NCBI RefSeq assembly: GCF_009931435.1
Contig: NZ_CP043414.1
DNA length: 64,000 bases
Source: Escherichia coli
GTDB taxonomy: Bacteria > Pseudomonadota > Gammaproteobacteria > Enterobacterales > Enterobacteriaceae
Strand: one strand, 5' to 3'
Position 1 is the first letter of the stretch; the number at the start of each line of letters is the position of its first letter. Below, piece after piece: positions 5,107 to 35,761 of this stretch. The notes under the pieces were generated by a model. The model saw only the letters and a list, made by a program, of their open reading frames with translations, was not told the DNA's origin and did not search any database. The position numbers and the translations under genes were made by a program.

Positions 5107-5883
5107 ATGTCCGAAACAAAAAACGAACTTGAAGACCTGCTGGAAAAAGCAGCAACCGAACCGGCGCACCGCCCGGCCTTTTTCCGTACTCTACTGGAAT
5201 CCACTGTCTGGGTACCAGGTACGGCGGCGCAGGGCGAGGCAGTGGCTGAAGATAGCGCGCTTGATTTACAGCACTGGGAAAAAGAAGATGGCACCAGCGT
5301 TATTCCTTTTTTTACCTCGTTAGAAGCACTTCAACAGGCGGTTGAAGACGAACAGGCATTTGTCGTAATGCCCGTTCGCACATTGTTTGAGATGACCCTT
5401 GGCGAAACGCTCTTCCTTAATGCCAAACTGCCAACCGGTAAAGAATTTATGCCGCGTGAAATCAGTTTGCTGATTGGTGAAGAAGGGAATCCGCTGAGCA
5501 GTCAGGAAGTACTGGAAGGCGGTGAATCGCTGATATTATCGGAGGTCGCAGAGCCGCCAGCACAAATGATTGATTCACTTACCACCTTATTTAAAACCAT
5601 TAAGCCGGTGAAGCGTGCTTTTATTTGTTCAATTAAAGAGAACGAAGAGGCACAGCCTAATTTACTTATTGGCATTGAAGCTGATGGCGATATCGAAGAA
5701 ATTATTCAGGCGGCGGGAAGTGTAGCGACCGATACATTACCTGGTGATGAACCAATCGATATTTGCCAGGTGAAAAAAGGGGAAAAAGGAATTAGCCACT
5801 TTATTACCGAACATATTGCGCCATTCTATGAACGTCGCTGGGGTGGATTCCTGCGTGATTTTAAACAAAATCGGATAATTTAA
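5107..5883 (+). CDS. sseB: SseB (enhanced serine sensitivity protein B)
   Basis: ORF 5098-5883 (GTG at 5098); ATG at 5107 gives MSETKNELEDLLEKA... (258 aa); position between pepB and sseA. Confidence 0.85.
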   Translation: MSETKNELEDLLEKAATEPAHRPAFFRTLLESTVWVPGTAAQGEAVAEDSALDLQHWEKEDGTSVIPFFTSLEALQQAVEDEQAFVVMPVRTLFEMTLGETLFLNAKLPTGKEFMPREISLLIGEEGNPLSSQEVLEGGESLILSEVAEPPAQMIDSLTTLFKTIKPVKRAFICSIKENEEAQPNLLIGIEADGDIEEIIQAAGSVATDTLPGDEPIDICQVKKGEKGISHFITEHIAPFYERRWGGFLRDFKQNRII

Positions 5884-5887
5884 AATA

Positions 5888-5912
5888 TGCCGCCCAAAGG
5901 GCGGCATTCGGG
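5888..5912 (+). terminator. Possible sseB terminator hairpin (gccgcccaaagggcggc), weak T-tract
   Basis: Perfect GC-rich stem 5 nt after sseB stop; downstream T-run is poor. Confidence 0.4.
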
Positions 5913-5914
5913 CT

Positions 5915-6345
5915 TACTTGCTGTTCTGAAGGTTGTTAACCATCAGTAAATTGTTGCCGGAGGGACTCCGGTTATTATTTACCTCGGTTAACAGCGCACC
6001 AGAAACAATAAGTACGATACAGAAGTACCGTATCTTCATTGTGCGGTCCATGCGAAGACCGCATCACGACAGCACCACTGGCGATATTGCCGCGATAGCA
6101 AGCGCTGTGGGGTGCCTGCATTTACGGTCATGGAACATCCTTTCCTAAAGCCAGCGCCCGTTTGCGAGACGGCGAAAAGGGCCGTCACGAATAATACTCT
6201 CATATTTGAATAATTACTCTATTTATTATCTTGACTTGGCCAGGCATAAAAGAGAGTATTTCAACACTGTGGGGTGCCTGCGTTGCTCCGGCAACACAAG
6301 TCAACCTGCTGGAAAGGCCGCGAACCAGACCAGCAATAAAAAACC
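5915..6345. ncRNA. ryfA: ryfA small-RNA locus (approximate bounds, strand not resolved)
   Basis: Non-coding ~0.45 kb gap between sseB and sseA where I recall ryfA lying in E. coli; bounded by hairpins at 5888-5912 and 6347-6372; exact ends not determinable from sequence alone. Confidence 0.3.
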
Positions 6346-12400: not shown

Positions 12401-14713
12401 ATGCCTCGCCTGTTAACCAAACGCGGCTGCTGGATAGCGCTGGCAGCTGCGCCTTTTCTCCTTTTTTTTGCCGCGTGGGGAGCAGATAAACTCTGGCCCC
12501 TGCCATTGCATGAAGTCAATCCCGCACGCGTAGTCGTGGCGCAGGATGGTACGCCACTCTGGCGTTTCGCCGATGCTGAGGGCATCTGGCGCTATCCGGT
12601 AACCATCGAAGATGTCTCTCCGCGTTACCTTGAAGCACTGATCAATTATGAAGATCGCTGGTTCTGGAAGCATCCGGGGGTGAATCCATTCTCGGTGGCG
12701 CGCGCAGCATGGCAAGATCTCACTTCGGGACGGGTTATTTCCGGCGGCAGCACACTCACCATGCAGGTTGCTCGTCTGCTTGATCCTCACCCCAAAACTT
12801 TTGGCGGCAAAATTCGCCAGCTCTGGCGCGCGTTTCAACTGGAATGGCACTTGTCTAAACGTGACATTCTGACCTTGTATCTTAATCGCGCTCCGTTTGG
12901 TGGTACGTTGCAGGGGATCGGTGCGGCAAGTTGGGCATATCTCGGAAAATCGCCTGCGAATTTAAGCTATTCCGAGGCGGCAATGCTGGCGGTGTTACCA
13001 CAAGCGCCCAGCCGACTGCGTCCGGATCGCTGGCCGGAACGTGCCGAGGCCGCACGTAATAAAGTGCTCAATCGGATGGCTGCGCAAGGTGTGTGGTCCC
13101 GTGAGCAGGTAAAAGAATCTAGTGAAGAGCCCATCTGGTTGGCACCCAGACAAATGCCGCAACTGGCACCGCTGTTTTCGCGCATGATGCTCGGTAAAAG
13201 CAAAAGCGACAAAATCGTTACTACGCTGGATGCTGGTTTACAGCGTCGTCTGGAAGAACTGGCGCAAAACTGGAAAGGACGATTGCCACCGCGCAGTTCG
13301 TTGGCAATGATCGTTGTTGATCATACTGATATGAGTGTGCGCGGCTGGATAGGATCGGTTGATCTTAATGATGATTCCCGCTTTGGGCATGTCGATATGG
13401 TCAATGCGATCCGATCGCCGGGATCGGTACTCAAACCGTTTGTTTATGGTCTGGCGCTGGATGAAGGCTTGATCCACCCTGCATCGCTGTTGCAAGACGT
13501 TCCCCGGCGCACTGGTGATTATCGACCAGGCAACTTTGACAGCGGTTTTCATGGCCCGATCAGCATGAGTGAGGCGCTGGTGCGCTCGCTGAATTTACCT
13601 GCTGTGCAGGTGCTGGAAGCCTATGGACCGAAACGGTTTGCGGCAAAGTTACGCAATGTTGGATTGCCGTTATATTTGCCCAACGGTGCTGCACCGAATC
13701 TTTCGCTCATTCTCGGCGGCGCAGGTGCAAAACTGGAGGATATGGCTGCAGCGTATACCGCATTTGCTCGCCACGGTAAGGCGGGTAAGTTGCGCTTACA
13801 GCCGGGGGACCCATTACTTGAGCGACCGTTAATGTCGCCGGGGGCCGCGTGGATTATCCGCCGTATTATGGCAGATGAAGCGCAGCCGCTTCCGGATGGC
13901 GCTTTGCCACGCGTCGTACCACTGGCGTGGAAAACAGGAACCAGTTATGGCTATCGCGATGCATGGGCTATTGGCGTTAACGCTCGTTACGTAATTGGGA
14001 TCTGGACTGGCAGACCGGACGGTACGCCCGTTGTCGGTCAGTTTGGCTTTGCCAGCGCCGTACCGCTGTTGAATCAGGTCAATAATATCTTACTGTCGCG
14101 CAGTGCGAATCTGCCGGAAGACCCGCGTCCTGATTCTGTAAGCCGTGGCGTTATCTGCTGGCCTGGTGGGCAATCATTGCCAGAAGGCGATAGCAATTGC
14201 CGCCGTCGTCTTGCCACCTGGCTGCTCGAAGATAGCCAGCCACCAACATTACTTTTACCGGAGCAAGAAGGAATAAGTGGGATTCGTTTCCCCATCTGGC
14301 TTGATGAGCAAGGCAAACGTGTTGCCGCTGATTGTCCTCAGGCTCGACAAGAAATGATTAATGTCTGGCCATTACCACTTGAACCCTGGCTACCTGCTGC
14401 TGAACGACGAGCAGCGCGCTTACCTGGGGCATCAACAAATTGCCCGCCGTATGGTCGTGATGCTCAGGTACCTTTACAGTTGATTGGTGTGCGTGATGGC
14501 GTAATTATCAAACGTCTGCCAGGAGCTACTGATGCGTCATTACCAGTACAATTAAGCGGAGGAACAGGCGAACGCTGGTGGTTTCTTAATGGTGAACCGT
14601 TAGCTGAACGCGGGCGTAACGTGACTCTGCATTTGACAGAGAAAGGCGATTATCAATTGCTGGTAATGGACGAAATGGGGCAGGTGGCGACAGTGAGATT
14701 TGTCATGCAGTAG
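12401..14713 (+). CDS. pbpC: Penicillin-binding protein 1C (bifunctional glycosyltransferase/transpeptidase)
   Basis: 770-aa ORF starting immediately after the yfhM stop; N-terminal TM segment; glycosyltransferase region RFWKHPGVNP and SXXK-type transpeptidase region. Confidence 0.9.
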   Translation: MPRLLTKRGCWIALAAAPFLLFFAAWGADKLWPLPLHEVNPARVVVAQDGTPLWRFADAEGIWRYPVTIEDVSPRYLEALINYEDRWFWKHPGVNPFSVARAAWQDLTSGRVISGGSTLTMQVARLLDPHPKTFGGKIRQLWRAFQLEWHLSKRDILTLYLNRAPFGGTLQGIGAASWAYLGKSPANLSYSEAAMLAVLPQAPSRLRPDRWPERAEAARNKVLNRMAAQGVWSREQVKESSEEPIWLAPRQMPQLAPLFSRMMLGKSKSDKIVTTLDAGLQRRLEELAQNWKGRLPPRSSLAMIVVDHTDMSVRGWIGSVDLNDDSRFGHVDMVNAIRSPGSVLKPFVYGLALDEGLIHPASLLQDVPRRTGDYRPGNFDSGFHGPISMSEALVRSLNLPAVQVLEAYGPKRFAAKLRNVGLPLYLPNGAAPNLSLILGGAGAKLEDMAAAYTAFARHGKAGKLRLQPGDPLLERPLMSPGAAWIIRRIMADEAQPLPDGALPRVVPLAWKTGTSYGYRDAWAIGVNARYVIGIWTGRPDGTPVVGQFGFASAVPLLNQVNNILLSRSANLPEDPRPDSVSRGVICWPGGQSLPEGDSNCRRRLATWLLEDSQPPTLLLPEQEGISGIRFPIWLDEQGKRVAADCPQARQEMINVWPLPLEPWLPAAERRAARLPGASTNCPPYGRDAQVPLQLIGVRDGVIIKRLPGATDASLPVQLSGGTGERWWFLNGEPLAERGRNVTLHLTEKGDYQLLVMDEMGQVATVRFVMQ

Positions 14714-16645: not shown

Positions 16646-16881
16646 GAATGAAGTATTAAGTTGCAATTGTCTGGTCAATATTAACGGTGCGTTTTTGCTG
16701 ACTTTAAGGCAGTATGTAACGATGCAACAGTAAGTTAGCCTTAGTGAATGTGGGCTTTGTCACGAGCACACAGACGGTCTTATACTGTATGATAACGGTT
16801 AACTTAACGGATGTTTCGCGGTGTGGGTGAGCATGATGGTTCACCGGCATCTCAATTCTCATTTAAACGTACCTGCAGCGA

Positions 16882-17895
16882 ATGAATACTGAAGCCACGC
16901 ACGACCAAAATGAAGCACTTACTACCGGCGCTCGCCTGCGTAATGCTCGCGAACAACTAGGACTTAGTCAGCAGGCCGTTGCTGAGCGACTTTGCCTGAA
17001 GGTTTCCACGGTACGCGACATTGAAGAAGATAAGGCACCTGCCGATCTTGCTTCAACATTCCTGCGCGGATATATCCGCTCTTATGCGCGTCTGGTACAT
17101 ATTCCAGAAGAAGAACTGCTACCGGGGCTGGAAAAACAGGCTCCACTACGAGCTGCAAAAGTTGCGCCGATGCAGAGTTTTTCCCTCGGTAAACGCCGCA
17201 AAAAACGTGACGGCTGGCTGATGACCTTCACCTGGCTGGTGTTGTTTGTGGTTATTGGCCTGAGCGGTGCCTGGTGGTGGCAAGACCACAAAGCTCAGCA
17301 GGAAGAGATCACTACTATGGCCGATCAATCTTCTGCGGAACTGAGCAGTAATAACGAACAGGGGCAGAGTGTTCCGTTAGATACGTCGACAACCACAGAC
17401 CCGACTACGACGTCCACGCCGCCAGCGTCTGTGGATACTACCGCAACTAACACGCAAACACCTGCCATAACTTCGCCAGCACCAGCTGTTGATTCACAAC
17501 AGAATGCAGTTGTTTCACCTTCGCAGGCAAATGTTGATACCGCTGCGACCCCGGCACCAACGGCAACAACAACGCCAGATGGTGCTGCGCCGTTGCCAAC
17601 CGATCAGGCTGGCGTGACCACGCCGGCGGCTGACCCGAATGCGTTGGTGATGAACTTTACTGCCGATTGCTGGCTGGAAGTCACTGACGCTACCGGTAAA
17701 AAACTGTTTAGCGGTATGCAGCGTAAAGACGGTAATTTGAACTTAACCGGCCAGGCTCCGTACAAACTGAAAATTGGTGCGCCAGCCGCAGTACAGATCC
17801 AGTATCAAGGGAAACCTGTCGATCTGAGTCGTTTTATCAGAACTAACCAGGTTGCGCGTCTGACCCTAAATGCCGAACAATCACCGGCGCAGTAA
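16882..17895 (+). CDS. rodZ: Cytoskeleton protein RodZ (HTH-TM-periplasmic domain)
   Basis: 337-aa ORF; N-terminal HTH ([12 protein letters not shown]), single [24 protein letters not shown], Pro/Thr/Ala-rich linker. Confidence 0.9.
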
Positions 17896-17921: not shown

Positions 17922-19040
17922 ATGCATAACCAGGCTCCAATTCAACGTAGAAAATCAACACGTATTTACGTTGGGAATGTGCCGATTGGCGATGGTGCCC
18001 CCATCGCCGTACAGTCCATGACCAATACGCGTACGACAGACGTCGAAGCTACGGTCAATCAAATTAAGGCGCTGGAACGTGTTGGCGCTGATATCGTCCG
18101 TGTCTCCGTACCGACGATGGACGCGGCAGAAGCGTTCAAGCTCATCAAACAACAGGTTAACGTGCCGCTGGTGGCTGACATCCACTTCGACTATCGCATT
18201 GCGCTGAAAGTAGCGGAATACGGCGTCGATTGTCTGCGTATTAACCCTGGCAATATCGGCAATGAAGAACGCATCCGCATGGTGGTTGACTGTGCGCGCG
18301 ATAAAAACATTCCGATCCGTATTGGCGTTAACGCTGGATCGCTGGAAAAAGATCTGCAAGAAAAGTATGGCGAACCGACGCCGCAGGCGTTGCTGGAATC
18401 TGCCATGCGTCATGTTGATCATCTCGATCGCCTGAACTTCGATCAGTTCAAAGTCAGCGTGAAAGCGTCTGACGTCTTCCTCGCTGTTGAGTCTTATCGT
18501 TTGCTGGCAAAACAGATCGATCAACCGCTGCATCTTGGGATCACCGAAGCGGGTGGCGCACGTAGTGGGGCAGTAAAATCTGCCATTGGTTTAGGCCTGC
18601 TGCTGTCTGAAGGCATCGGCGACACGCTGCGCGTATCGCTGGCGGCCGATCCGGTCGAAGAGATCAAAGTCGGTTTCGATATTTTGAAATCGCTGCGTAT
18701 CCGTTCGCGCGGGATCAACTTCATCGCCTGCCCGACCTGTTCGCGTCAGGAGTTTGACGTTATCGGTACGGTTAACGCCCTGGAGCAACGCCTGGAAGAT
18801 ATCATCACCCCGATGGACGTTTCGATTATCGGCTGCGTGGTGAATGGACCAGGTGAGGCGCTGGTTTCTACACTCGGCGTCACCGGCGGCAACAAGAAAA
18901 GCGGCCTCTATGAAGATGGCGTGCGCAAAGACCGTCTGGACAACAACGATATGATCGACCAGCTGGAAGCGCGCATTCGTGCGAAAGCCAGCCAACTGGA
19001 TGAAGCGCGTCGAATTGACGTTCAGCAGGTTGAAAAATAA
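17922..19040 (+). CDS. ispG: 4-hydroxy-3-methylbut-2-enyl diphosphate synthase IspG (GcpE)
   Basis: 372-aa [31 protein letters not shown]...; conserved CPTCSR cysteine region. Confidence 0.95.
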
Positions 19041-19150
19041 TAACGTGATGGGAAGCGCCTCGCTTCCCGTGTATGATTGAACCCGCATGGCTCCCGAAAT
19101 ATTGAGGGGCGCGTTGAGGGTTCATTTTTATATTCAGAAAGAGAATAAAC

Positions 19151-20440
19151 GTGTCGAAGAAAATTCAGTCTGTACGCGGTATGAATGATTATTTGCCAGT
19201 GGAAACCGCTGTATGGCAACGCGTTGAGCGCATAATTAAAAGCGTTGTTGAGTCTTACGGATACAGTGAGATTCGCACACCTATTCTTGAGCAAACGCCA
19301 CTGTTTAAGCGCGCTATCGGTGAAGTTACCGATGTTGTTGAAAAGGAGATGTACACCTTCAACGATCGTGAGCGTGATGCAAAAGAGGTTGTCTCGTTAA
19401 CTCTTCGCCCTGAAGGTACAGCAGGATGTGTACGCGCCGGTATAGAGCATGGCCTTCTGTACAATCAGGAACAGCGTTTGTGGTATATGGGGCCGATGTT
19501 CCGTCACGAACGCCCGCAAAAAGGTCGTTATCGACAGTTCCACCAAATCGGTCTCGAAGTTTTTGGCCTACAGGGTCCAGATATCGACGCCGAACTCATT
19601 ATGCTTACTGCTCGTTGGTGGCGTGAACTGGGTATCTCTGAACACGTAACTCTTGAGCTGAACTCTATCGGTTCGCTGGAAGCACGCGCCAATTATCGCG
19701 ATGCGCTGGTTGCATTCCTTGAGCAGCATAAAGAAAAGCTGGACGAAGACTGCAAACGCCGCATGTACACTAACCCGCTGCGCGTGCTGGATTCCAAAAA
19801 TCCGGAAGTGCAGGCCCTTCTCAACGACGCCCCAGCATTAGGTGACTATCTTGACGAGGAATCTCGTGAGCACTTTGCTGGTCTGTGCAAACTGCTGGAG
19901 AGCGCGGGTATCGCTTACACCGTAAACCAGCGTCTGGTGCGTGGTCTGGATTACTATAACCGTACTGTTTTTGAGTGGGTGACTAACAGCCTCGGTTCCC
20001 AGGGCACCGTGTGCGCAGGCGGTCGTTATGACGGTCTGGTGGAACAACTGGGTGGTCGTGCAACACCGGCAGTCGGTTTCGCGATGGGCCTCGAACGTCT
20101 TGTATTGTTAGTTCAGGCCGTTAATCCGGAATTTAAAGCCGATCCTGTTGTCGATATATATCTGGTGGCTTCAGGTGCTGACACACAATCTGCGGCTATG
20201 GCATTAGCAGAGCGTCTGCGTGATGAATTACCGGGCGTGAAACTGATGACCAACCACGGCGGCGGCAACTTTAAGAAGCAGTTTGCCCGTGCTGATAAAT
20301 GGGGCGCCCGCGTTGCTGTGGTGCTGGGTGAGTCTGAAGTGGCTAACGGCACAGCAGTAGTGAAGGATTTGCGCTCTGGTGAGCAAACGGCAGTTGCGCA
20401 GGATAGCGTAGCCGCGCATTTGCGCACGTTACTGGGTTAA
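19151..20440 (+). CDS. hisS: Histidine--tRNA ligase
   Basis: 429-aa ORF with GTG start at 19151; class II aminoacyl-tRNA synthetase motifs. Confidence 0.95.
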
Positions 20441-24326: not shown

Positions 24327-26519
24327 ATGTCACAGGGGATGTGCATGCTGCGATGGAAACGCTGTATTATGCTAACATTTATCTCTGGAGCTGCTTTTGC
24401 GGCTCCAGAGATAAATGTTGAGCATAAAGAATCGTTACCTGATTTAGGTAGTCAGGCCGCACAACAGGAAGAGCAAACTAACAAGGGTAAATCGCTAAAA
24501 GAGCGTGGTGCCGATTACGTCATTAACTCTGCCACGCAAGGGTTTGAAAACCTCACACCCGAGGCGCTGGAGTCCCAGGCCAGAAGCTATCTGCAAAGTC
24601 AAATTACCTCTACGACACAATCTTATATTGAGGATACACTCTCCCCCTACGGTAAGGTCCGAACGAATCTTTCTCTTGGTCAGGGCGGCGATCTGGATGG
24701 CAGTTCCATCGACTATTTTGTTCCCTGGTATGATAATCAAACTACTGTTTATTTCAGCCAATTTTCTGCACAACGAAAAGAAGATCGTACGATCGGGAAT
24801 ATTGGGCTTGGTGTAAGACATAATTTTGATAGATGGTTATTGGGTGGAAATATATTTTATGATTATGATTTTACCCGTGGGCATCGCCGTTTAGGTTTAG
24901 GTGCCGAAGCCTGGACTGATTATTTAAAATTCTCTGGCAACTATTATCATCCGCTTTCTGACTGGAAAGACTCCGAAGATTTCGATTTTTATGAGGAGCG
25001 TCCTGCGCGCGGTTGGGATATTCGCGCCGAAGCCTGGCTACCTGCTTACCCGCAGCTTGGCGGTAAAATCGTTTTCGAACAGTATTACGGTGATGAAGTC
25101 GCGCTTTTTGGCACCGATAATCTGGAGAAAGATCCCTTCGCCGTCACGCTGGGTGTGAAATACCAGCCCGTACCGCTCATTGCCGTAGGAACGGATTTCA
25201 AAGCCGGCACTGGCGATAATACCGATCTTTCTGTTAACGCAACGCTGAACTACCAGTTTGGCGTCTCGCTCAAAGACCAGCTTGATCCTGACAAAGTAAG
25301 CGCGGCTCACTCGCTCATGGGCAGCCGTCACGACTTTGTTGAACGTAACAACTTTATTGTTCTGGAATACAAAGAGAAAGATCCCCTCGATGTCACTTTG
25401 TGGCTGAAAGCTGATGCGACGAATGAACATCCCGAGTGCGTGATTAAAGATACGCCAGAAGCAGCCATCGGGCTGGAAAAATGTAAGTGGACCATTAACG
25501 CGCTCATTAATCATCATTACAAAATCGTTGCTGCCTCCTGGCAGGCGAAAAACAATGCTGCACGTACGCTGGTGATGCCGGTTATCAAAGAAAATACGCT
25601 TACCGAAGGGAACAACAATCACTGGAATCTGGTGCTGCCTGCCTGGCAGTACAGCTCTGATAAAGCCGACCAGGAAAAACTCAATACCTGGCGGGTACGC
25701 CTGGCGCTGGAAGATGAAAAAGGCAATCGGCAGAACTCCGGCGTGGTGGAAATTACCGTTCAGCAGGACCGTAAAATTGAGCTCATTGTTAACAACATCG
25801 CCAATGTACCGGATGAGAACAATCACAGCCACGAAGCCAGCGCGCAAGCGGATGGTGTAGATGGTGTCGTCATGGATCTCGACGTTACCGATAGCTTTGG
25901 CGACAACACTGACCGTAACGGTAATGTCTTGCCGCAGGATAATCTCAGCCCGCAGCTGTTTGATGCCAACGATAAAAAAGTGACGCTGACGAATAAACCC
26001 TGCACCACCGAAGTGCCGTGCGTTTTTATCGTCAAACAAGATAAAGAAAAGGGGACCGTTACGCTCTCCAGTACGTTGCCCGGCACTTTCCGCTGGAAGG
26101 CGAAAGCCGCCCCTTATGATGACAGTAACTATGTTGACGTAACGTTCCTGGGTTCTGACATCGGCGGGCTGAATGCTTTTATCTACCGCGTTGGTGCAGC
26201 TAAGCCCGTCAATCTTATCGGCAACAAAGAACCGTTGCCTCTCAATAGCCGCTATCGCTTTGTGCTGTGGCGCGACGCTAACAAAGACGGCGTGTTCCAG
26301 CTTTCTGAGAAGCTCACTGACGATGAGATGAAACAGTATGACTATCAGTGGGAATTCACGGGGCATAGCGTAAATGGCAATACCGGTGCGCAAACCAATA
26401 CCACGAACGTCGATATAGAGATCCCGGCAACCAACAAGGAAGCGGCAGCAAAGTTTAGTGCCCAGGTAACCGATGGCGTGCAGGGATACGGTTTGCAGGT
26501 CAATTACAGCAAGAAATAG
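24327..26519 (+). CDS. sinH: Intimin/invasin-family outer-membrane protein (inverse autotransporter), SinH-like
   Basis: 730-aa ORF; signal-like N-terminus (alternative start at 24345, MLRWKRCIMLTFISGAAFA); central inverse-autotransporter-type beta-barrel region; located between yfgJ and xseA as in the Salmonella CS54-type island (from memory). Confidence 0.7.
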   Translation: MSQGMCMLRWKRCIMLTFISGAAFAAPEINVEHKESLPDLGSQAAQQEEQTNKGKSLKERGADYVINSATQGFENLTPEALESQARSYLQSQITSTTQSYIEDTLSPYGKVRTNLSLGQGGDLDGSSIDYFVPWYDNQTTVYFSQFSAQRKEDRTIGNIGLGVRHNFDRWLLGGNIFYDYDFTRGHRRLGLGAEAWTDYLKFSGNYYHPLSDWKDSEDFDFYEERPARGWDIRAEAWLPAYPQLGGKIVFEQYYGDEVALFGTDNLEKDPFAVTLGVKYQPVPLIAVGTDFKAGTGDNTDLSVNATLNYQFGVSLKDQLDPDKVSAAHSLMGSRHDFVERNNFIVLEYKEKDPLDVTLWLKADATNEHPECVIKDTPEAAIGLEKCKWTINALINHHYKIVAASWQAKNNAARTLVMPVIKENTLTEGNNNHWNLVLPAWQYSSDKADQEKLNTWRVRLALEDEKGNRQNSGVVEITVQQDRKIELIVNNIANVPDENNHSHEASAQADGVDGVVMDLDVTDSFGDNTDRNGNVLPQDNLSPQLFDANDKKVTLTNKPCTTEVPCVFIVKQDKEKGTVTLSSTLPGTFRWKAKAAPYDDSNYVDVTFLGSDIGGLNAFIYRVGAAKPVNLIGNKEPLPLNSRYRFVLWRDANKDGVFQLSEKLTDDEMKQYDYQWEFTGHSVNGNTGAQTNTTNVDIEIPATNKEAAAKFSAQVTDGVQGYGLQVNYSKK

Positions 26520-26574
26520 GGTCGGCGCCATGGCTGATCGGGCCACCGCTGAATATTAATCAAGGAGAGTGTTT

Positions 26575-27567
26575 ATGAAACCTGATATGAAACGTGGCCT
26601 GACAAAAGTCGCGCTCGCGTTGATGCTGGCTGGATACTGTGCCGTACCAGCCGCTATGGCGGAAGATGCCGCCTGGGTCGCCAGTGGAGCGACCGCTGAA
26701 TTCGAAGGGACTATACCCTGGCTCTATCGCGAAGGGGGGAATGCCACGATTAACTCGGAAGATGCGGATCACATTAAAGTGACGTCTGATGGTAAAGGGA
26801 CCCGCCCTGCAGGTAGCGAGACGGATAAACGCCTTTACTCAGGGGATACCATCACGCTGGGATGGGATATCGGCGATACCGAAGGGGATGTTGATGATGG
26901 TCCCGCAGGCATTGATGCGAAAACGACGGCCACTATCAAATGGTACAGCTACAGCAATAATGCGGGTGGCGATAAAACGGAGCTGACCGCAGCGGCAGGC
27001 AAGACGAGTTATAAACTCACTGATGACGATCGTGGGCGTTATATCGGTGTTGAAATCCAGCCCATCACCCAGACCGGTAATCCCTTCGAGGGAACGTCGC
27101 TGACTCTGCTGGATATTTCAACGGCCAGCGGTGGCGGCAGCGATACGGACAATGTCGATCCCGGCCCGGTTGTGAACCAGAATCTGAAAGTTGCCATCTT
27201 CGAGAAAGGCACCACTACCAACCTTATCGGTGGTAACACGGCCATTGCGCTTAATAAAACGTATGTGGCCAAACTGTACTCGGATGAAAACCAGAACGAT
27301 AAATACGACGCAGGTACGGATATGGACGTTACCGCTAACTATGACTTTGCATGGGTCTTTAACGGTAACAGTAAACAACTTGCTGCGGCGGGCGGTATTG
27401 CTAATGCCAGCTTCGATAACAATGACATTGTTATCCCGCAAACTAACGAAGAAGCAAGAACCAGCCTTAATGGTAGTGACCGTAATGGTAAGAGTGGTCT
27501 TGCGATCCCGGCAAACGGCGACGGCGTTCAGGGCTATACGCTGTCTATCATTTACAAACACCACTAA
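26575..27567 (+). CDS. sinI: Secreted SinI-like protein, homologous to the SinH C-terminal module
   Basis: ORF 26569-27567; ATG at 26575 preceded by aaggag RBS; signal peptide MKPDMKRGLTKVALALMLAGYCAVPAAMA; C-terminal DGVQGYTLSIIYKHH parallels SinH C-terminal DGVQGYGLQVNYSKK. Confidence 0.65.
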   Translation: MKPDMKRGLTKVALALMLAGYCAVPAAMAEDAAWVASGATAEFEGTIPWLYREGGNATINSEDADHIKVTSDGKGTRPAGSETDKRLYSGDTITLGWDIGDTEGDVDDGPAGIDAKTTATIKWYSYSNNAGGDKTELTAAAGKTSYKLTDDDRGRYIGVEIQPITQTGNPFEGTSLTLLDISTASGGGSDTDNVDPGPVVNQNLKVAIFEKGTTTNLIGGNTAIALNKTYVAKLYSDENQNDKYDAGTDMDVTANYDFAWVFNGNSKQLAAAGGIANASFDNNDIVIPQTNEEARTSLNGSDRNGKSGLAIPANGDGVQGYTLSIIYKHH

Positions 27568-27576
27568 TGCGCACAA

Positions 27577-27606
27577 CAGCATTCCCATATGGGAATGCTG
27601 TTTTCC
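27577..27606 (+). terminator. Hairpin plus T-tract after sinI (cagcattcccatatgggaatgctg then ttttcc)
   Basis: Perfect palindrome 10 nt after sinI stop, followed by a T-run; a second long palindrome follows at 27608-27642. Confidence 0.5.
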
Positions 27607-27676
27607 GCCTGTTTTGCTTAGCGACGCGTTAAGCAAAACAGGTTGATGTTTTGTTTATCATGCTGGAGTTTTCTAC

Positions 27677-30600
27677 ATGTCGGTATGTCTGAAACCAGGG
27701 AAAATCATTATGCTTCTGGGCATGTTGGCAGCTTTTATGCTGTCTGACTTTGCACGGGCAGGGGCGGAATGGCAGACATATCCTGATTCTACAGGCGAGT
27801 TTAACGGAACCGTTCCTTTTGCCGACAGCGCCAGCGTACCCGTCTATCAGGGCAGTGTTCAGCTTAATCCTGCTGAATCTCATGATGTCGGGTTTTCTGC
27901 TAAACCGAATGAATTTAGTGTTGACGATGACGCTGCTAACCTGATTGTTGCTAATCCTCAGGACAATGAAGGCGACCAGTTTTCCACACCACCTGCGCTG
28001 CGCTGGGAAAATCAAACACCCCCTACCGTCAGCCTGGTGTGGGCCGATGCCGCCACGCCCGATGTGCCCCTTAACCCACAACCCATTGCTAACCGTAGCT
28101 TTTGCGCTCAGGGGCTCGCCGGACGCTCGCTGGTGGCCTGGCCGCAGATTGATGCGCAGCAAACCCTCCCACTGCTCTACCTGCTGACCTCGACCGGGTA
28201 TCCCTATGCGGGGACGGTGGCGCTGGTGGACCAGAAAGTGACCCTGAACATCGCGCCCGCGCAGGGCGATTTAATCTCGGTGAGCGCCAGCGGTTATAAC
28301 GAAACGATCGCGGCGGCAAAAACCACCGTTGGCGACACCATCACGCTCACCGTCACCACTAAAGATTGTCAGGGCAACGTCGCGGGTAATATTCCGTTTA
28401 TTATCAAACGTAAAGATGCTGAAAATCGCCAGGGGGCAGTGAATAATAGTGCGCCAGTGGTACTGGATAGCACCGAGTTAACGACGACGGCTACCGAATA
28501 CCATGGCACCTCTGATTCCAACGGCACGGCCACCATCACGGTGAGCCAACCGAACGGCCCTGGTGTCAAAACGCCACTGGTGGTCAGCATTTCCGGCATT
28601 GCGCAAACCAGCGAAACCGCAGTGATTTTTACCGTACTCACCAGCCCGGACGTGGCGCAGGCTACGATGTGGGGCCATATGGCGGAGACGGTAGAAGCCC
28701 ACGGTTACACCTTCAGTCGACCAAAGCTGGCGGCAGAAGTCAGCAATGAAAGCGCCACGGTTGTCGATCATAACGAAACCTGGTCCACCTTCACCTGGAG
28801 CGGCGCAGATAGCCACTGCACCGTGCTGCCCGGCATGCGCCACTTCGGCGCGCTGGCGACCGTTATCCCCACGTCGGTGCAGACAGCCCTTGGCTGGCCG
28901 ATGCAGGGGGATTATTACTGGTCATCGCTGGCGGGCACCACCGGGCAGCACCATGCGGCGGATGTCTCTAACCGTAGTGAAACGCAAAAGCCGGATAGCA
29001 CCCCGTTTCTTGTGAGCTGCGTGGATAAACCCGCGCCTGATGTCGAACCGAAAATCGTCCTTACGCCCGAAAACTATGATGATACGGCACAGGCGATGAA
29101 ATCGCAGGTGGGCGAAGACGCCACGATGCGTCTGACGATCACCGACAATAAAAATAACGATCAACCACTGGCGTATTACTACTTCTCGCTGCATCTGGAT
29201 GACGGCGTTAACCGCAAAAATCAAACCGATTCCGCCTGGGAAGCCCATCCGGTGCAGATTACTGGTGGTTCGAATTTACAACAGGTTGATGCTCACACCT
29301 ATGAAGGCATGACCGATGTCAACGGTCAGGCTTCGCTAACCCTGAGTCAGCCCGACGGCGCAGGCGTGAAAACCCATATCACGGCGAAAATGCGCAGCAA
29401 TTTTACGGCTACAGATGCCAAAGACGTGATTTTTACTGTGATCACCAGCCCGGACAGCGACAAGGCGCGGATGTGGGGCCATATGCGCGGCATTGTTGTA
29501 TCTGGCAGTCTGTTCAAACGCCCAGTGCTGGCGGATGAAACTGAGCATGAACTGGGATCGGTGCGGGAAAATGACGAAGACTGGGCGCTGTTCGATCAAG
29601 ACACCAGTATGCAGGCTGAATGCGGCGTCGGCCATACGCCACGTCAGAGTGGGCTGGAAAGCCTGTTTTCAGCCCATCCCGGTAACGCGATTGGCACTGA
29701 GTATGGCTGGCCCACCGCCCAACAGAGCTACTTAAGCGCGGTGGAGCAAGCCACGCATTCATCGGTGAATCTGGGGAACGGAAACGTCGACAGCTACTCC
29801 GGCTTTAAGCAGAATTACCTCTCCTGTTCGGGCAATGAGATGGTAGCGAAGGTTGAAGTCAGCACCGATCACGATATCACCCCTGGCAGCAAAGCGCAGG
29901 CCAAAGTAGGTGACACCATCGTGATGACCGTGCGTACGATTAACGCGCTCAATAATACCCCGGTACCCTTTACTGCATTCACCATTACCAAAGGCATGGG
30001 GTATAACCGAGCGGGGCTGGTGAGCGGGTTTGATGACCCGAGCAGCGGCGCAATCTCGATGAATGGCACGCAATACGGCACATCACAGCCGTCGATGGTC
30101 TACACAGGTACGACAGATGCACAAGGCGTGGCAACGGTCGAAATAGAGCAACCCCAGGGGGTGGGGTTAAGAACCGTGCTGAGCATTACGCCGGTCAATT
30201 CCCATCTACCAAATGCCATTAATTACAATGTTATTTTTACCACCCCAACCAGCCCGGATGTTAGTGGGGCGCAGATGTGGGGCCATATGGATGAAACGAT
30301 TACCGTTGATTCATTAACCTTTACCCGGCCTAAGCTGGCAGCAGAAATCGCCAGTCCGGATGGCACACTAACGGAAAAAAACGAAGTCTGGGCGCGCGTT
30401 AGCCAGGCCAGTACGGCCATTACCAGTAAAGGCGGTTGCGGAACCAATATGCTGCCGCGCCGCTCCCAGCTCAGTGCGCTTTATGACGCTAATAACGGTA
30501 ATGCGGTGCAAGCCACACACGGCTGGCCGACGCAGCGTCAGCCCTACTGGAGCAGTTCCCCCGCGGATTTAACGCCGCACAATTACACCATTGCCCTGGA

Positions 30601-33600
30601 TAACGGCGCACAGGCCATCGGCGGCGATACGCCGGTTTACGTCAGTTGCCTGACGACGGCGAACAAACCTGCCAGCAGCATTACGCTGGATGTGGTTGAT
30701 AACGCACAGTGGGCTGCCGGAAATAACGCGGCGAAGCTGAAAAAAGGCGAAACGCTACGGGTTAAGGTAACGGTAAAAGATGCGCAGGGTAATCCGCTCA
30801 CGGATATGCCATTTAAACTGAGTCGCGGAGACGGTTATACCCGCACGGGCGAAAAACATATTGCCGGTAGTGGCGATGCGCTGGTGGCACCGGTGGTGAT
30901 TAACAGTGGGCTGGCGGATGAAACGACGTTGAACGACACCGCGGGATTTTATACTGCCATGACCGGTAGCGACGGCAGCAAAATCCTCAATATTACCCGC
31001 CCGGATACTCACGGCACCAAAACGGCGCTGACGGCGACGTTGTATTCCGATCCAACAAAAAAAGACAGCCTGGATACAATCTTTACTGTGGTCACCAGCC
31101 CGGATAGTAGCAAAGCGAAAATGTGGGGGCATATGCCGGAAACGGTGACGGCTGCGGACGGTACGGTATTTAAACGCCCGCTGTTGTTGAAGGAACTGGC
31201 CTATCAGACTGGGCGAACATCGACGTCTGAAGACAATGAAAACTGGGCGTTGTTTAACATTAATTATGCGAGTTCTTCCACGACGTATAGTGGCTGTGGA
31301 ACCAACTATATTCCGACTCAAGCCGGTCTGACGTCACTGTTTGCTAATAATGCGGGCAACACCATGAAAACCGTGCAGGGCTGGCCGGTGGCAACACGCT
31401 ATTTGTCCAACACGTCCGACAACGGCAGCATGGAGCAGCGTAACTACAAGGCGGTAGATCTCAGCAATGGCACGAGTGCGGCAGTGTCATCAACGGCGCT
31501 GCAACTGCTGACCTGCCAGACCACGCCGGTAACCACGGTGGGCCAAATTCTGCTGGAAGCGGCAGATCCGGCGACGCTGGATACCACCTATAACGTGGTA
31601 AAAGCGAAAAAAGGCGAAGAATCCGTGGTGCGCGTCACCACCAAAGATACGCAAGGCAACCTGGTGGGCAATACGGCATTTATCCTGACGCGTGCCAACA
31701 GCGTGAGTCGGGCTAACGCATCAGCAACCGCGAGCGTGGGCGCGCTGACGGTGACGGATGCTTGGGGAAATACGCGAAATAATTTCCAGTCGACGAGTGA
31801 AACGATTTACGGCGTGACTGGTGCAGACGGGTCAACGACATTTACCCTGAAACAGGATAACAGTACCGGGTTAAGAACCGATCTCACGGCAAAACTGGAT
31901 ACGTCCAGCAGCGTCAAGGCGACGCTACCGGTGGTCTTTACTGTCGTGACCAGCCCGGATTCGCCAAAAGCGAATTTTTGGGGACATATGGCCGAAACGG
32001 TGATGGCCTCCGACGGTACAATCTATAAACGACCACTGTTGTTGAAAGAGCTGAGTAACACCAGTGGTCGAAATTCTACGGCTGAAAACGGTGAAGATTG
32101 GGCAAGATTCACCTGGACTCAGTCGGCTGACACCAGCATGAATGGGTGTGGTACAGATTATATGCCGACGCTGGATGGACTGAAGTCTTTGTATGACGCC
32201 AATAGCGGTAATGTGATGAGTACGGTGCAGGGATGGCCGGTAAAAACGACCTATCTCACCAATACCCCGAGTGATACGCAAACAGGGAGCCGTTACTACA
32301 ATGTGGTGCAACTGAATACTGGTGCAGTCTCACAAATCTCGACGAACACAGTCGTGCAACAAACCTGCCGCACAACGCCGTTGACGGCTGCTAGCCAGAT
32401 TACGCTGGAGGCCTCAGACCCCTCGCAATTTGTCAGCATTGACAGTACGCTTAGCGCGATCAAAGTGCAGAAAGGCGATAGCGTGTCGATCCGCATTTCG
32501 ACTAAAGATGCACAGGGGAATTTAGTCGGCAATACGCCGTTTGCCCTGAAACACGCTAACCCGGTCAATCGCCAAAATGTGGCGTCAACATCGCAGAAAG
32601 TGTCGGTCACGACTGCGTCGGGTACGACGGTGGATACCACTGCATCGACCATTCTGTATGGCGTGACCGGGCCAGACGGAACCACCACGATGACACTCCG
32701 ACAGGATGTGTCTACTGGACTCAAAACCGACTTTTATGCTCTGTTGAACGATACCGGCGTGTCGTCGAACACCTTGCCAGTGATCTTCACCGTCGTCACC
32801 AGCCCGGATACACCGCTGGCGGCCAACTGGGGGCATATGGCGGAAACCTTTACCAGCAGCAAGGGCGTCACCTTCAAACGGCCTTTCCTCAAAGCTGAAC
32901 TTTCTGGTGGTACGGCGGTAACGACCAATAATGAAGTCTGGTCGCGCCTGACAGCAACGGAGAAAACGGATGCCAGCAAGGCTGGGTGTGATGAGAGTTA
33001 TCAACCGCTGATGACTGACATGCAGGGGTTGTATGCGGATTACCCTAACAACCAGTTGGGCACGGTGCTCGGCTTGCCGACTTCCGCCGGGTATATGTGG
33101 GCCTACGACATGATGACGGTTTCTGGCAGCAGCTGGAGCAACCAGGCATATTCGCTCGTTAATGGTCAGACAGTTCAGGCATCGTCCAGTTATACGGCGG
33201 TAGTGATGTGCCTGGTGGAACCGCATACCGTTCCGGCGATGATAGAGATCACTTCAACAGCACAGGATGCGGCAAAAACGGTCAGCAATGGTGGTCGACC
33301 GAGCGCCGTAGCGAAGAAAGGTGAGACGATTCCGCTGACGGTGACCGTACGTGATAGCACCGGGAATCCGGTACCCTACGCCGACTTTACCCTCACGCGT
33401 GGAACGACGCTGGATCGCTCGAAAGCAACCGTTAACTCGAGTGCGGACGATCTTACCGTGAAGTCATTGATACCCGCGAACAGCGACGCTGGGCTGACGG
33501 CAAATGGGGCAAAAGTGCTCAGAACAACGGGCAGTGATGGCACAGCCACCTTTGAAGTGAGCCAGAATGCCACGACAGGTCTGGCGACACCGATAACCGT

Positions 33601-35761
33601 CACGCTGGCGCGCGATACAACCAAAACCGCCACGCTGGATGTTATCTACACGGTGATAACCAGCCCGGACTCACCGAGCGCGAAATTCTGGGGATACATG
33701 CCGGACACCTTTACCAGTTCGGCAGGCGTCACCTTCAGACGACCGCTCCTGAAAGCCGAAGCGACTTCAGGGTCATCGATTAGCACTAACGGCAATGGTG
33801 AAGTGTGGTCGTATATGAGCAACGTTCAAAATTTAACATCGACAGATTGTCCGCTGGAGAATCAACCGCGCAGTAATGAATTGTTGGATTTGTATAATGA
33901 TCATCCCAACGGCGCGATAATGACTGACCTGGGGCTGCCGATATATGCAGGCAAGTGGTGGGCTTATGATATGGTCATGCCGGATTTATATACGTGGCAG
34001 TATCAGACTGTCAGCCTGAGCGCAGGAGATATCGCGAAGAGCTCGGCAAACAACGCGCTGATGCTTTGCCTGGCGAAGCCGCATCCGGCAGGCGTCAGCG
34101 TAATGTTGACGTCATCCGCAATGGATAACGCCAGAACCCTCAGTAATGGCGGGCGACCCAGCGCGTCAGTGAAAAAAGGTAACCCACTGCCAATTGTGGT
34201 GACGGTCAAAGATCGTGATGGCAACCCGCTGGCGGGAGAGGCCGTTACGCTCAGGCGTGGTTCAGCGATGAGCCGTTCAGGAGCAGGAGTGGGCACGCCG
34301 GCAAATGCAATGACGTTGACAGAGTTGACACCTGTGTCGGCGGAGTTTTCTCTGGCCGCACACGATACGCAATGGCAAGGTTTCACCGGCAGTGATGGTA
34401 CGGCCACTTTCAATGTTGAACAGCCTGAGACCATCGGCCTGGCCATTCCGTTCACCGCTATACTGGCGCGAGATGTCGCAACTACCAGCGTCCTTGATAC
34501 GATCTTTACCGTCGTCACCAGCCCGGATTCCGCAATGGCGACCTACTGGGGCCATATGCCGGATACGGTAACGGCGGAAAACGGCGTGGTCTTTGAACGG
34601 CCTAAATTGTTGAAAGAGCTGCCGTCGAGCGCCGGAGTCAGTCAGGTGACGGATAACAATGAAGTGTGGCCGTTGTTTAAGGCAACGCAAAGGGAAGATA
34701 GCAGCCTCAGTCCTTGTGAAGCGGCACGTCGGCCATTGAGCGATGATTTATTATCGCTCTACGCGCGCTATCCGGGGAACACGCTGACGACTCAAATCGG
34801 CTGGTCTACGAAGTATGCATGGTGGGCACTGGATAACAAGCAGGGGAATGCCCTGGTTGTCAGTCTGAATAATGGTTTTGAGTCGTCGACGGCGAGTACG
34901 GGGTATCAGGGATGTCTGGTCAATCCCCGCGCGACCGTCTCCAGCGTCACGCTGACATCGACGGTGATAGATGCCACTACGCAGGCGGCGAAGGTAAAAA
35001 AAGGTGAAGCCGCGCCCGTCGTTGTTACCGTAAAAGACAGCGCCGGGAAGCCGGTACCGAATGTCGCTTTCACCTTAAAACGTGGTGATGCCGTGCCGCG
35101 TAACAGCGGGGCGACGTTGTATGGTGATGTTGCGGCGATGGATGATATGACGGTACAACCTGCCAGCGGGACGGTGGTAACGCTGGCTGACAGTGGGAAT
35201 ACGATCGACGGTGTGACAGGGGCGGACGGTACGGCAAGTTTTGCCGTTCGTCAGGATAATACGCCAGGATATAAAACGCCGTTGACGGTGACGCTGACGG
35301 ATAACGCCACAATAACGGCGACGCTGGATACGATTTTCACCGTGCCGACCAGCCCGAATGTCGCCACGGCGTATTTCTGGGGGCATATGGCGGATACCGC
35401 CACCGTAAGTGGCAAGACGTTACATCGCCCGCTATTGCAATCAGAGTTGCCGTCAGGGGCTACAGCGGCAGTAGCGCCAACGGTGAATAATGAAATCTGG
35501 GCGCTGGCACATGTGATCGATGCTCAAAAATGGGATATTGCAAAGCAGTGCGGTGACTTTAGTAGAGCACCGAGCTATACCGATTTACAGTCGTTACATA
35601 GCAGCTTTAGCGCGCTGGGATGGCCATCATCGATAAGCTTCCCCTATTTCTCTACCGATCGGGCCGGTTCGTTCTATTGTGGCATGGATGAAGGGGCGGG
35701 GACACAAAACTGCGGTATTCAGGCATCCAGTACTGCGGGGTTTGCAACCTGTTTCCAGTAG
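27677..35761 (+). CDS. ratA: Giant RatA/RatB-like repetitive surface or secreted protein (Big_1-type Ig-like domains)
   Basis: 2694-aa uninterrupted ORF; N-terminal signal ([17 protein letters not shown]); nine tandem repeats each with a Big_1-like strand (e.g. [13 protein letters not shown]), a TSPD motif and a WGHM motif; last gene of island, convergent with xseA. Confidence 0.65.
28640..35400 (+). repeat. Nine tandem, divergent coding repeats (period 804-861 nt) inside the ratA-like gene
   Basis: The tgg-ggN-cat/tac-atg (WGHM/WGYM) motif recurs at 28670, 29474, 30278, 31124, 31979, 32828, 33689, 34547, 35378; each is preceded by accagcccgga (TSPD). Confidence 0.85.

Follow-up and report, generated by a model that had tools for sequence, protein, structure and literature searches.

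RodZ (YfgA) of Escherichia coli K-12 is the closest described counterpart of the protein considered here. RodZ is a bitopic protein of the inner membrane and links MreB filaments in the cytoplasm with the machinery for cell-wall synthesis in the periplasm. The transmembrane (TM) helix has been placed at residues 112-133, and in the periplasmic part a disordered domain precedes a folded domain rich in beta structure (PMC6946637). The disordered periplasmic domain is thus an already known feature of RodZ, and has been described as promoting RodZ self-interaction (Ikebe et al. 2018, Genes Cells 23:307, as cited in PMC6946637). Cells with RodZ 1-142 or 1-155 remain rods (PMC6946637). With periplasmic truncations, cells largely keep their rod shape but have fewer MreB polymers (PMC6052060), and thus the periplasmic part is not functionless. 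In Bacillus subtilis, the RodZ ectodomain likewise comprises an extracytoplasmic disordered segment and then a beta-rich folded domain (Pereira et al. 2015, NMR, as cited in PMC6946637). The B. subtilis protein differs in being a distant ortholog, with a linker sequence unrelated to that of E. coli.

Low-complexity, poorly conserved segments, flexible or Pro-rich and spanning the envelope, also let membrane-anchored proteins place a small folded domain away in the periplasm, as in LpoB (its N-terminal linker), TonB, TolA (domain II) and FtsN, where they act by length and flexibility. They are analogous, and not homologous, to the RodZ linker, which is acidic and rich in Thr, Ala, Pro, Ser and Gln but has neither the Pro-Lys/Pro-Glu repeats nor the long helix of segments of this type. 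We know of no demonstration that RodZ reaches through the peptidoglycan. The PT linkers of secreted enzymes (e.g., cellulases) resemble the RodZ linker in T/P/S/A composition, unconserved sequence and variable length. In secreted proteins these linkers connect catalytic modules with binding modules and are often O-glycosylated; to our knowledge, O-glycosylation of the RodZ linker is neither known nor implied.

The gene studied here lies in a 64-kb window (the whole stretch of E. coli DNA that was analysed) and is, by its sequence matches, rodZ. The NCBIfam model NF008109, 'cytoskeleton protein RodZ', covers residues 1-333 of 337 with a score of 608.7 bits (cutoff 208), and a Streptococcus-type RodZ model from NCBIfam scores 33.8 bits on the same protein. 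The N-terminal cytoplasmic XRE-type helix-turn-helix (HTH) domain is present (Pfam HTH_25, residues 18-79, E = 2.6e-14), as is the C-terminal domain RodZ_C (PF13464, residues 256-328, E = 2.6e-24, 85.4 bits vs. a cutoff of 23.9), for which an AlphaFold2 (AF2) model predicts beta-strands across residues 255-329 (pLDDT 74-82). A single TM helix probably follows the basic juxtamembrane segment, as indicated by the sequence, by an AF2 helix at residues 111-151, and by a match of residues 106-138 to the TM peptide 'Cytoskeleton protein RodZ' in the PDB (6s0k, chain k). Beyond this peptide, the PDB sequence search returned weak HTH matches only, and no structure of the linker or of the E. coli C-domain was found.

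The K-12 protein (cluster P0001) is the product of the same gene at the same position, has the same length of 337 aa, and shares the architecture of HTH domain, basic juxtamembrane segment, TM helix, disordered segment and beta-domain. It is 97% identical to the protein from the window and 100% identical in the cytoplasmic domain; the nine nonsynonymous differences between the two alleles (Nei-Gojobori count) are all in the linker. MreB binding and a requirement for rod shape are known for the K-12 protein. The genes next to rodZ match RlmN and IspG in NCBIfam, and the conserved enterobacterial order rlmN-rodZ-ispG-hisS is present, within a longer series (ndk-rlmN-rodZ-ispG-hisS-yfgM-bamB-der) that has the E. 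coli K-12 order. Over the 11 kb around rodZ, a single base distinguishes the window from E. coli R32_14_1F, a goat isolate (NZ_CP074749). The gene is single-copy and chromosomal in 5,425 of 5,426 complete E. coli genomes. Its parts are listed in the table.

Table. Parts of rodZ in the window, with the mean column entropy of the linker segments among close homologs.
Feature	Position (nt)	Strand	Basis or remark
rodZ coding sequence (337 aa + stop)	16882..17895	+	ORF; NCBIfam NF008109 match; annotated rodZ in NZ_CP074749 and K-12
Cytoplasmic part, residues 1-111: helix-turn-helix domain and basic juxtamembrane KRRKKR	16882..17214	+	Pfam HTH_25
Transmembrane helix (predicted), residues 112-132	17215..17277	+	hydrophobic stretch after KRRKKR
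Conserved periplasmic juxtamembrane segment, residues 133-154	17278..17343	+	0.16 bits; TM helix predicted to extend into it
Variable patch 1, residues 155-161 (SSNNEQG)	17344..17364	+	1.74 bits
Conserved island, residues 162-170 (QSVPLDTST)	17365..17391	+	0.43 bits
Variable patch 2, residues 171-206, core Thr/Pro/Ala/Ser-rich low-complexity stretch	17392..17499	+	1.47 bits
Conserved island, residues 207-223	17500..17550	+	0.27 bits
Variable patch 3, residues 224-236	17551..17589	+	1.34 bits; length varies between species
Conserved island, residues 237-255, leading into the folded domain	17590..17646	+	0.38 bits
C-terminal periplasmic beta-domain (RodZ_C), residues 256-337	17647..17892	+	Pfam PF13464

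A preliminary description of the window had reported a Pro/Thr/Ala-rich low-complexity stretch at 17300-17650 and had assigned it to the periplasmic linker of RodZ. Both statements hold. The interval corresponds to RodZ residues 140-256, between the membrane helix and the RodZ_C domain, and the two peptides quoted from it are found exactly (33 aa at residues 170-202, nt 17389-17487, and 22 aa at residues 223-244, nt 17548-17613). The first ~15 residues of the interval (140-154) are not of low complexity; they are conserved and predicted to form a helical extension of the membrane helix.

For residues 133-255, which we refer to as the linker, T+P+A+S account for 58.5% of residues vs. 26.6% in the remainder of RodZ. 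The background, taken from 16,153 windows of 123 aa in those stop-free frames of the whole 64-kb window that are at least 200 aa long, is 26.9% (sd 7.2%), and the value of 58.5% is reached only by windows within RodZ itself. The linker is 20% Thr, 16% Ala, 12% Pro, 10% Ser, 9% Gln and 8% Asp, and T+P+A+S+Q+N+D+G reach 82.9%; in composition the linker is an outlier against all long frames of the 64 kb. K+R make up 0.8% of the linker (13.6% elsewhere in RodZ) and hydrophobic residues 12% (32% elsewhere), and the Shannon entropy of its composition is 3.42 bits (4.08 elsewhere). A bias toward disorder-promoting residues that is far beyond chance, and a depletion of hydrophobic residues, are thereby confirmed.

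On either strand, rodZ is the sole ORF of 60 aa or more that overlaps 17329-17650; no Rfam family matches within rodZ, and the linker itself contains no sites resembling promoters or terminators. A single promoter-like match was found, upstream of rodZ (16757-16786), and such matches are not above shuffle expectation. Tandem Repeats Finder and a direct-repeat search revealed no long or substantial repeats in the linker: direct repeats are imperfect and 12-13 nt long, and the sole tandem repeat is weak (9 bp x 2.1, score 31, at 17552-17570). Repeat-driven length variation, as at a simple-sequence contingency locus, was considered and rejected as the mechanism of the common indels, given the lack of substantial repeats and the nature of the indels, which are single in-frame events at short microhomologies.

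The explanation that we favor, with a probability of about 0.85, is that the stretch is an intrinsically disordered periplasmic tether that works mainly via its bulk properties. About 100 residues (~152-250), rich in Thr, Pro, Ala, Ser, Gln and Asp, would join the membrane helix and its short helical extension to the C-terminal beta-domain and position that domain away from the inner membrane. Judging from polymer and envelope dimensions, a disordered chain of ~100 residues should be able to span a distance on the order of that between the inner membrane and the peptidoglycan. The bulk properties at work would be flexibility, solubility, approximate length, and the self-interaction that has been published. 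Because the segment would act mainly through these properties, selection would retain its composition and rough length rather than its sequence. Amino acid substitutions accumulate ~20-fold faster in the linker than in the folded parts, and in-frame indels, probably arising by slippage or by microhomology-mediated deletion between the many similar ACN, CCN and GCN codons, are tolerated. The AF2 model is consistent with disorder: past the helix that ends at residue 151, residues 151-250 have no predicted secondary structure and a pLDDT of 30-35. The model is weak overall because the alignment behind it is shallow (32 close homologs; mean pLDDT 49.9, with the known HTH domain also below 50), and we use it as support only.

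Comparison with homologs is in line with selection on composition and rough length. Among 120 close homologs from Escherichia spp., Citrobacter and Salmonella, all hits not truncated at one end have an N-terminal part of 132 aa and a C-terminal part of 82 aa; linker length varies between 73 and 124 aa. The linkers are 58-95% identical to that in the window, vs. 91-100% for the flanking parts. In 126 distant full-length representatives (at most 50% identity), the linker is 77-191 aa long (median 120), with a median T+P+A+S of 44% and K+R of 3%. Little of it can be aligned past a juxtamembrane start resembling WQNHKAQQ, which is recognizable in about half of these proteins. All length change across the 120 close and 126 distant homologs is in the linker. 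By these alignments, composition and approximate length are conserved and sequence is not, except for islands shared by close genera.

These islands give the linker a finer structure. It is not uniformly variable: three patches do vary, but four conserved islands interrupt them. In a shallow set of 32 sequences from Escherichia, Citrobacter and Salmonella, mean column entropy is 1.3-1.7 bits in the patches, 0.16-0.43 bits in the islands and ~0.1 bits in the folded parts. Invariant residues in this set include Q162; Q207, A209, V210, V211, P213, S214, Q215, A216, N217, D219 and A221; and L238, A243, D251, N253 and A254. In these close genera, three hypervariable patches alternate with four conserved islands along the linker, a mosaic whose islands suggest possible interaction motifs. 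Island conservation nearly as strong as that of the folded domains is unexpected under a pure passive-spacer model.

Within E. coli, we aligned 14 rodZ alleles from a systematic spread of genomes, which encode eight distinct proteins. In the genomes providing these alleles, RlmN and IspG are almost always represented by one protein accession each. Of 28 variable alignment columns, 27 fall in residues 133-255 (binomial P = 2.8e-11) and the other is at residue 262; variable patch 2 holds most of the substitutions. Most replacements exchange T, A, S and P conservatively for one another, and composition is retained. There is no amino acid change in residues 1-111 (dN = 0, mean pairwise dS 0.034, dN/dS 0; mean column entropy among the close homologs 0.11 bits). 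Residues 112-132 likewise have dN and dN/dS of 0 (dS 0.074), and residues 256-337 have a dN of 0.0009 and a dS of 0.054 (dN/dS 0.016). For the linker, mean dN is 0.044 and dS 0.147, giving a dN/dS of 0.30 (the mean of 12 alleles; all dN/dS values are region-wide averages). Pairwise tests gave 0.37 and 0.23 for the linker, and every comparison is well below 1.

The comparison of K-12 with ST131 places 18 nonsynonymous differences in the 268 such sites of the linker and one in the 487 sites elsewhere (Fisher P = 7e-8). Because dN/dS is below 1 and nonsynonymous changes concentrate in the linker, we conclude that it is under relaxed purifying selection, not positive selection. In the same comparison, divergence across the surrounding 11 kb peaks most sharply at the linker, with 91% identity vs. 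98-100% for rlmN and ispG. Linker dS is also raised, at 0.19 vs. ~0.06 in the rest of rodZ (~3-fold, Fisher P = 0.008; a second P value for the raised synonymous divergence is 0.001). Relaxed protein constraint alone is insufficient to explain a raised dS. Together with dense clusters of differences, it gives a hint of ancient allele families or of short patches brought in by recombination.

The preliminary description had also called the linker variable and indel-prone across strains, and this proved correct. We queried each allele type against ~5,425 complete genomes, and the identity bands are sharply separated (trimodal). Linker length is not identical across strains, though ~77% of genomes share one length: the 337-aa allele type (1014 bp) was found in 4,162 genomes (~77%), the 335-aa type (1008 bp) in 1,094 (~20%) and the 336-aa type (1011 bp) in ~164 (~3%). 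The common length polymorphism thus amounts to 1-2 codons only. The 337-aa alleles are separated from those of 335 and 336 aa by a 6-bp indel at ~17353-17358 in patch 1, in an AAT/AGC-rich run at codons 158-159 (AGCAGTAATAACGAACAG vs. AATAATAAT------CAA). The 3-bp indel of the 336-aa allele is in patch 2 (~17464-17478, near codons 195-199) and adjoins an ACG ACG duplication; around codons 195-206 of this allele, 11 of 36 nt differ in a dense cluster.

The suggestion that the linker could serve as a strain marker stands only in part. Linker alleles mark deep lineages, which they do separate, not strains, and form three families with many sub-alleles that are partly shared across phylogroups. 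The 336-aa linker allele (468 bp) is 100% identical in LF82, NRG 857C, IAI39 and CE10; we take the first two to belong to phylogroup B2 and the last two to phylogroup F. The allele in the window (WP_032184883) is rare, with 15-17 of 5,425 genomes at least 99% identical. Use of rodZ as a typing marker was not found in the literature on the RodZ periplasmic domain, in a search that was not specific to typing. Typing by the linker adds nothing beyond standard MLST or core-genome typing.

Larger changes are rare. The protein database contains rare Escherichia RodZ variants of 287-331 aa, and every one that is not truncated is missing linker residues. DNA was recovered for three of them, in which the deletions are in-frame and the rlmN-rodZ-ispG-hisS contexts intact. 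P0096 has lost 50 codons, with 6 nt of microhomology at the junction (CCCGGC); P0068 has lost 34, with 3 nt of microhomology and an imperfect 18-nt repeat; and P0072 has lost 25, with 8 nt of microhomology (GCACCAGC). The right-hand junction of all three independent deletions is at codon 223 (nt 17548-17550), the 3' end of the island 207-223. P0072 was seen in five contigs of independent samples, including NCBI GCA_024846065.1. SRR13347169 and DRR184230 are further sources of natural deletion alleles. All three variants lack the island at 207-222 yet persist in isolates, which agrees with the published rod shape of cells with RodZ 1-142 and 1-155.

Could the linker be a functional disordered region, in which the islands (133-154, 162-170, 207-223 and 237-255) are short linear motifs and the patches are spacers? 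The partner could be another RodZ molecule, PBP2, MreC or peptidoglycan. This reading would refine the tether explanation and is compatible with it, and we regard it as possible, if on balance doubtful. It would account for the entropy contrast between islands and patches and for the many island residues that are invariant across three genera, and a motif resembling AVVSPSQ (island 207-223) is kept in five of the 126 distant representatives, at ~50% identity. It also fits published reports of self-interaction via the disordered domain and of an interaction between the periplasmic part and PBP2 (PMC6946637). Most of the distant representatives, however, lack the island motifs, and the islands are defined in close genera only, so that their conservation may partly reflect a lack of time. 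The natural alleles without the entire 207-222 island, and the rod shape supported by the two truncated proteins, also argue against this reading. The more specific proposal that the islands, above all 207-221 and 237-255, are undescribed motifs contacting a RodZ or elongasome partner (PBP2, MreC), with the patches as tunable spacers, strikes us as rather unlikely. If the islands are motifs, the natural deletions ending at codon 223 would be partial loss-of-function or compensated alleles.

Other readings concern the origin of the variation. Old allele families, or short stretches imported by recombination that happen to span the linker, are improbable as the main source of the divergence peak, since the same segment is the sole length-variable and the least conserved part between genera and among the 126 representatives, and since the rise in dN far exceeds that in dS. 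Such events would be a contributor at most, for which the ~3-fold raised dS, the dense cluster of differences in the 336-aa allele, the sharply trimodal identity bands and the sharing of one allele by LF82, NRG 857C, IAI39 and CE10 all speak, as does a mosaic neighborhood in the strain of the window, at hisS and pbpC. Diversifying (positive) selection on an exposed segment, e.g., by phage, colicins or host factors, could also produce a sharp divergence peak and three discrete allele families. We consider it very improbable, as dN/dS is 0.23-0.37 in all comparisons and never exceeds 1, and the swaps are mostly conservative; the segment is, moreover, placed in the periplasm, behind the outer membrane (PMC6946637). 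Least probable of all, to the point of being negligible, is an origin of the length differences in faulty sequencing or assembly of a low-complexity region. One genome (P276M) does have a broken, frameshifted rodZ, but pbpC and rlmN are frameshifted in this low-quality assembly as well, which indicates a general quality problem, and we do not interpret its rodZ biologically. The length classes recur in thousands of complete genomes (and the rarest still in ~164), the indels are all multiples of three, and no long repeats able to collapse in assembly are present.

In annotation, rodZ alleles that differ in length by 1-2 codons, or the occasional ones lacking 25-50 codons, should not be taken as errors or pseudogenes. 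The map of islands and patches, combined with the natural deletion series, could guide structure-function dissection of the periplasmic part of RodZ.

We identified an excess of synonymous divergence in the rodZ region that encodes the disordered, Thr/Pro/Ala-rich periplasmic linker. dS in this segment is about 3-fold above that of the rest of rodZ and of rlmN and ispG. For K-12 versus ST131, the values are 0.19 in the linker and 0.05-0.08 elsewhere (Fisher P = 0.008 and 0.001). The linker differences occur in dense clusters, and rodZ sequences fall into three sharply separated allele families; one linker allele is common to LF82, NRG 857C, IAI39 and CE10. The raised dS, together with the clustering, is not accounted for by relaxed protein constraint alone.

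Features of the window and of one comparison sequence
Feature	Position (window unless stated)	Strand	Remarks
ryfA sRNA	5882-6185	-	Rfam, 308 bits
pbpC	12401-14713		most notable part 14132-14631
sigma-70-like site	16757-16786	+	TTGTCA, 18-nt spacer, TATACT; 10/12 matches
rodZ linker	17278-17646	+	raised dS
sroE sRNA	19040-19131	+	Rfam, 110 bits; between ispG and hisS
hisS	19151-20440		diverged 5' third, 19151-19630
inverse-autotransporter gene	first in 24327-35761		730 aa; IAT_beta, E = 1e-105
332-aa ORF	within 24327-35761		after the inverse-autotransporter gene
2,694-aa protein	within 24327-35761		after the 332-aa ORF; adhesion-domain repeats (9 BIg21 + 9 InvE_AD)
rodZ allele with 50-codon deletion	1501-2364 of L016 (Logan SRR13347169 contig)		deletion in linker

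In the Logan contig, 50 codons of the rodZ linker are missing in frame, the remaining rodZ sequence has one mismatch to that of K-12, and the adjoining rlmN is 100% identical to its K-12 counterpart. The source may be a laboratory strain derived from K-12, or an evolved line, in which the linker deletion arose spontaneously. Strain P276M (NZ_CP044293, labelled 'complete') is the sole complete E. coli genome with an apparently broken rodZ. In it, pbpC, rlmN and rodZ are all frameshifted or partial within 6 kb, which almost certainly reflects poor assembly quality rather than gene decay.

Located in the 284-bp rlmN-rodZ spacer, roughly 100 bp before the start of rodZ, the sigma-70-like site is a plausible rodZ promoter, but matches of this kind are no more numerous than shuffling would lead one to expect. 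Both sRNAs identified are previously known in E. coli. Among the reading frames of the window, only the 2,694-aa ORF, besides rodZ, has a moderately high combined Thr, Pro, Ala and Ser content (peak 0.49). It is encoded in a region that we take to be a SinH/SinI/RatA-like adhesin island.

Based on comparison with other strains, hisS of the window has a mosaic structure. Over the first ~480 bp it shares only 73-78% identity with K-12, ST131 and DEF2, which are mutually 99-100% identical across this interval. The diverged part encodes ~160 altered residues with a 5-aa insertion (AKEVV), beyond which HisS is identical to the K-12 protein. Among 5,426 complete genomes of E. coli, megablast finds the segment in only 54. 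It appears to have been acquired by recombination from a different species. Divergence of pbpC from K-12 is also unusually high (dS 0.53, dN 0.03; 0.08-0.15 is the dS range of the neighbouring genes), with nucleotide identity of the 3' end falling to 76-82%. This pbpC is probably another imported allele or an ancient one.
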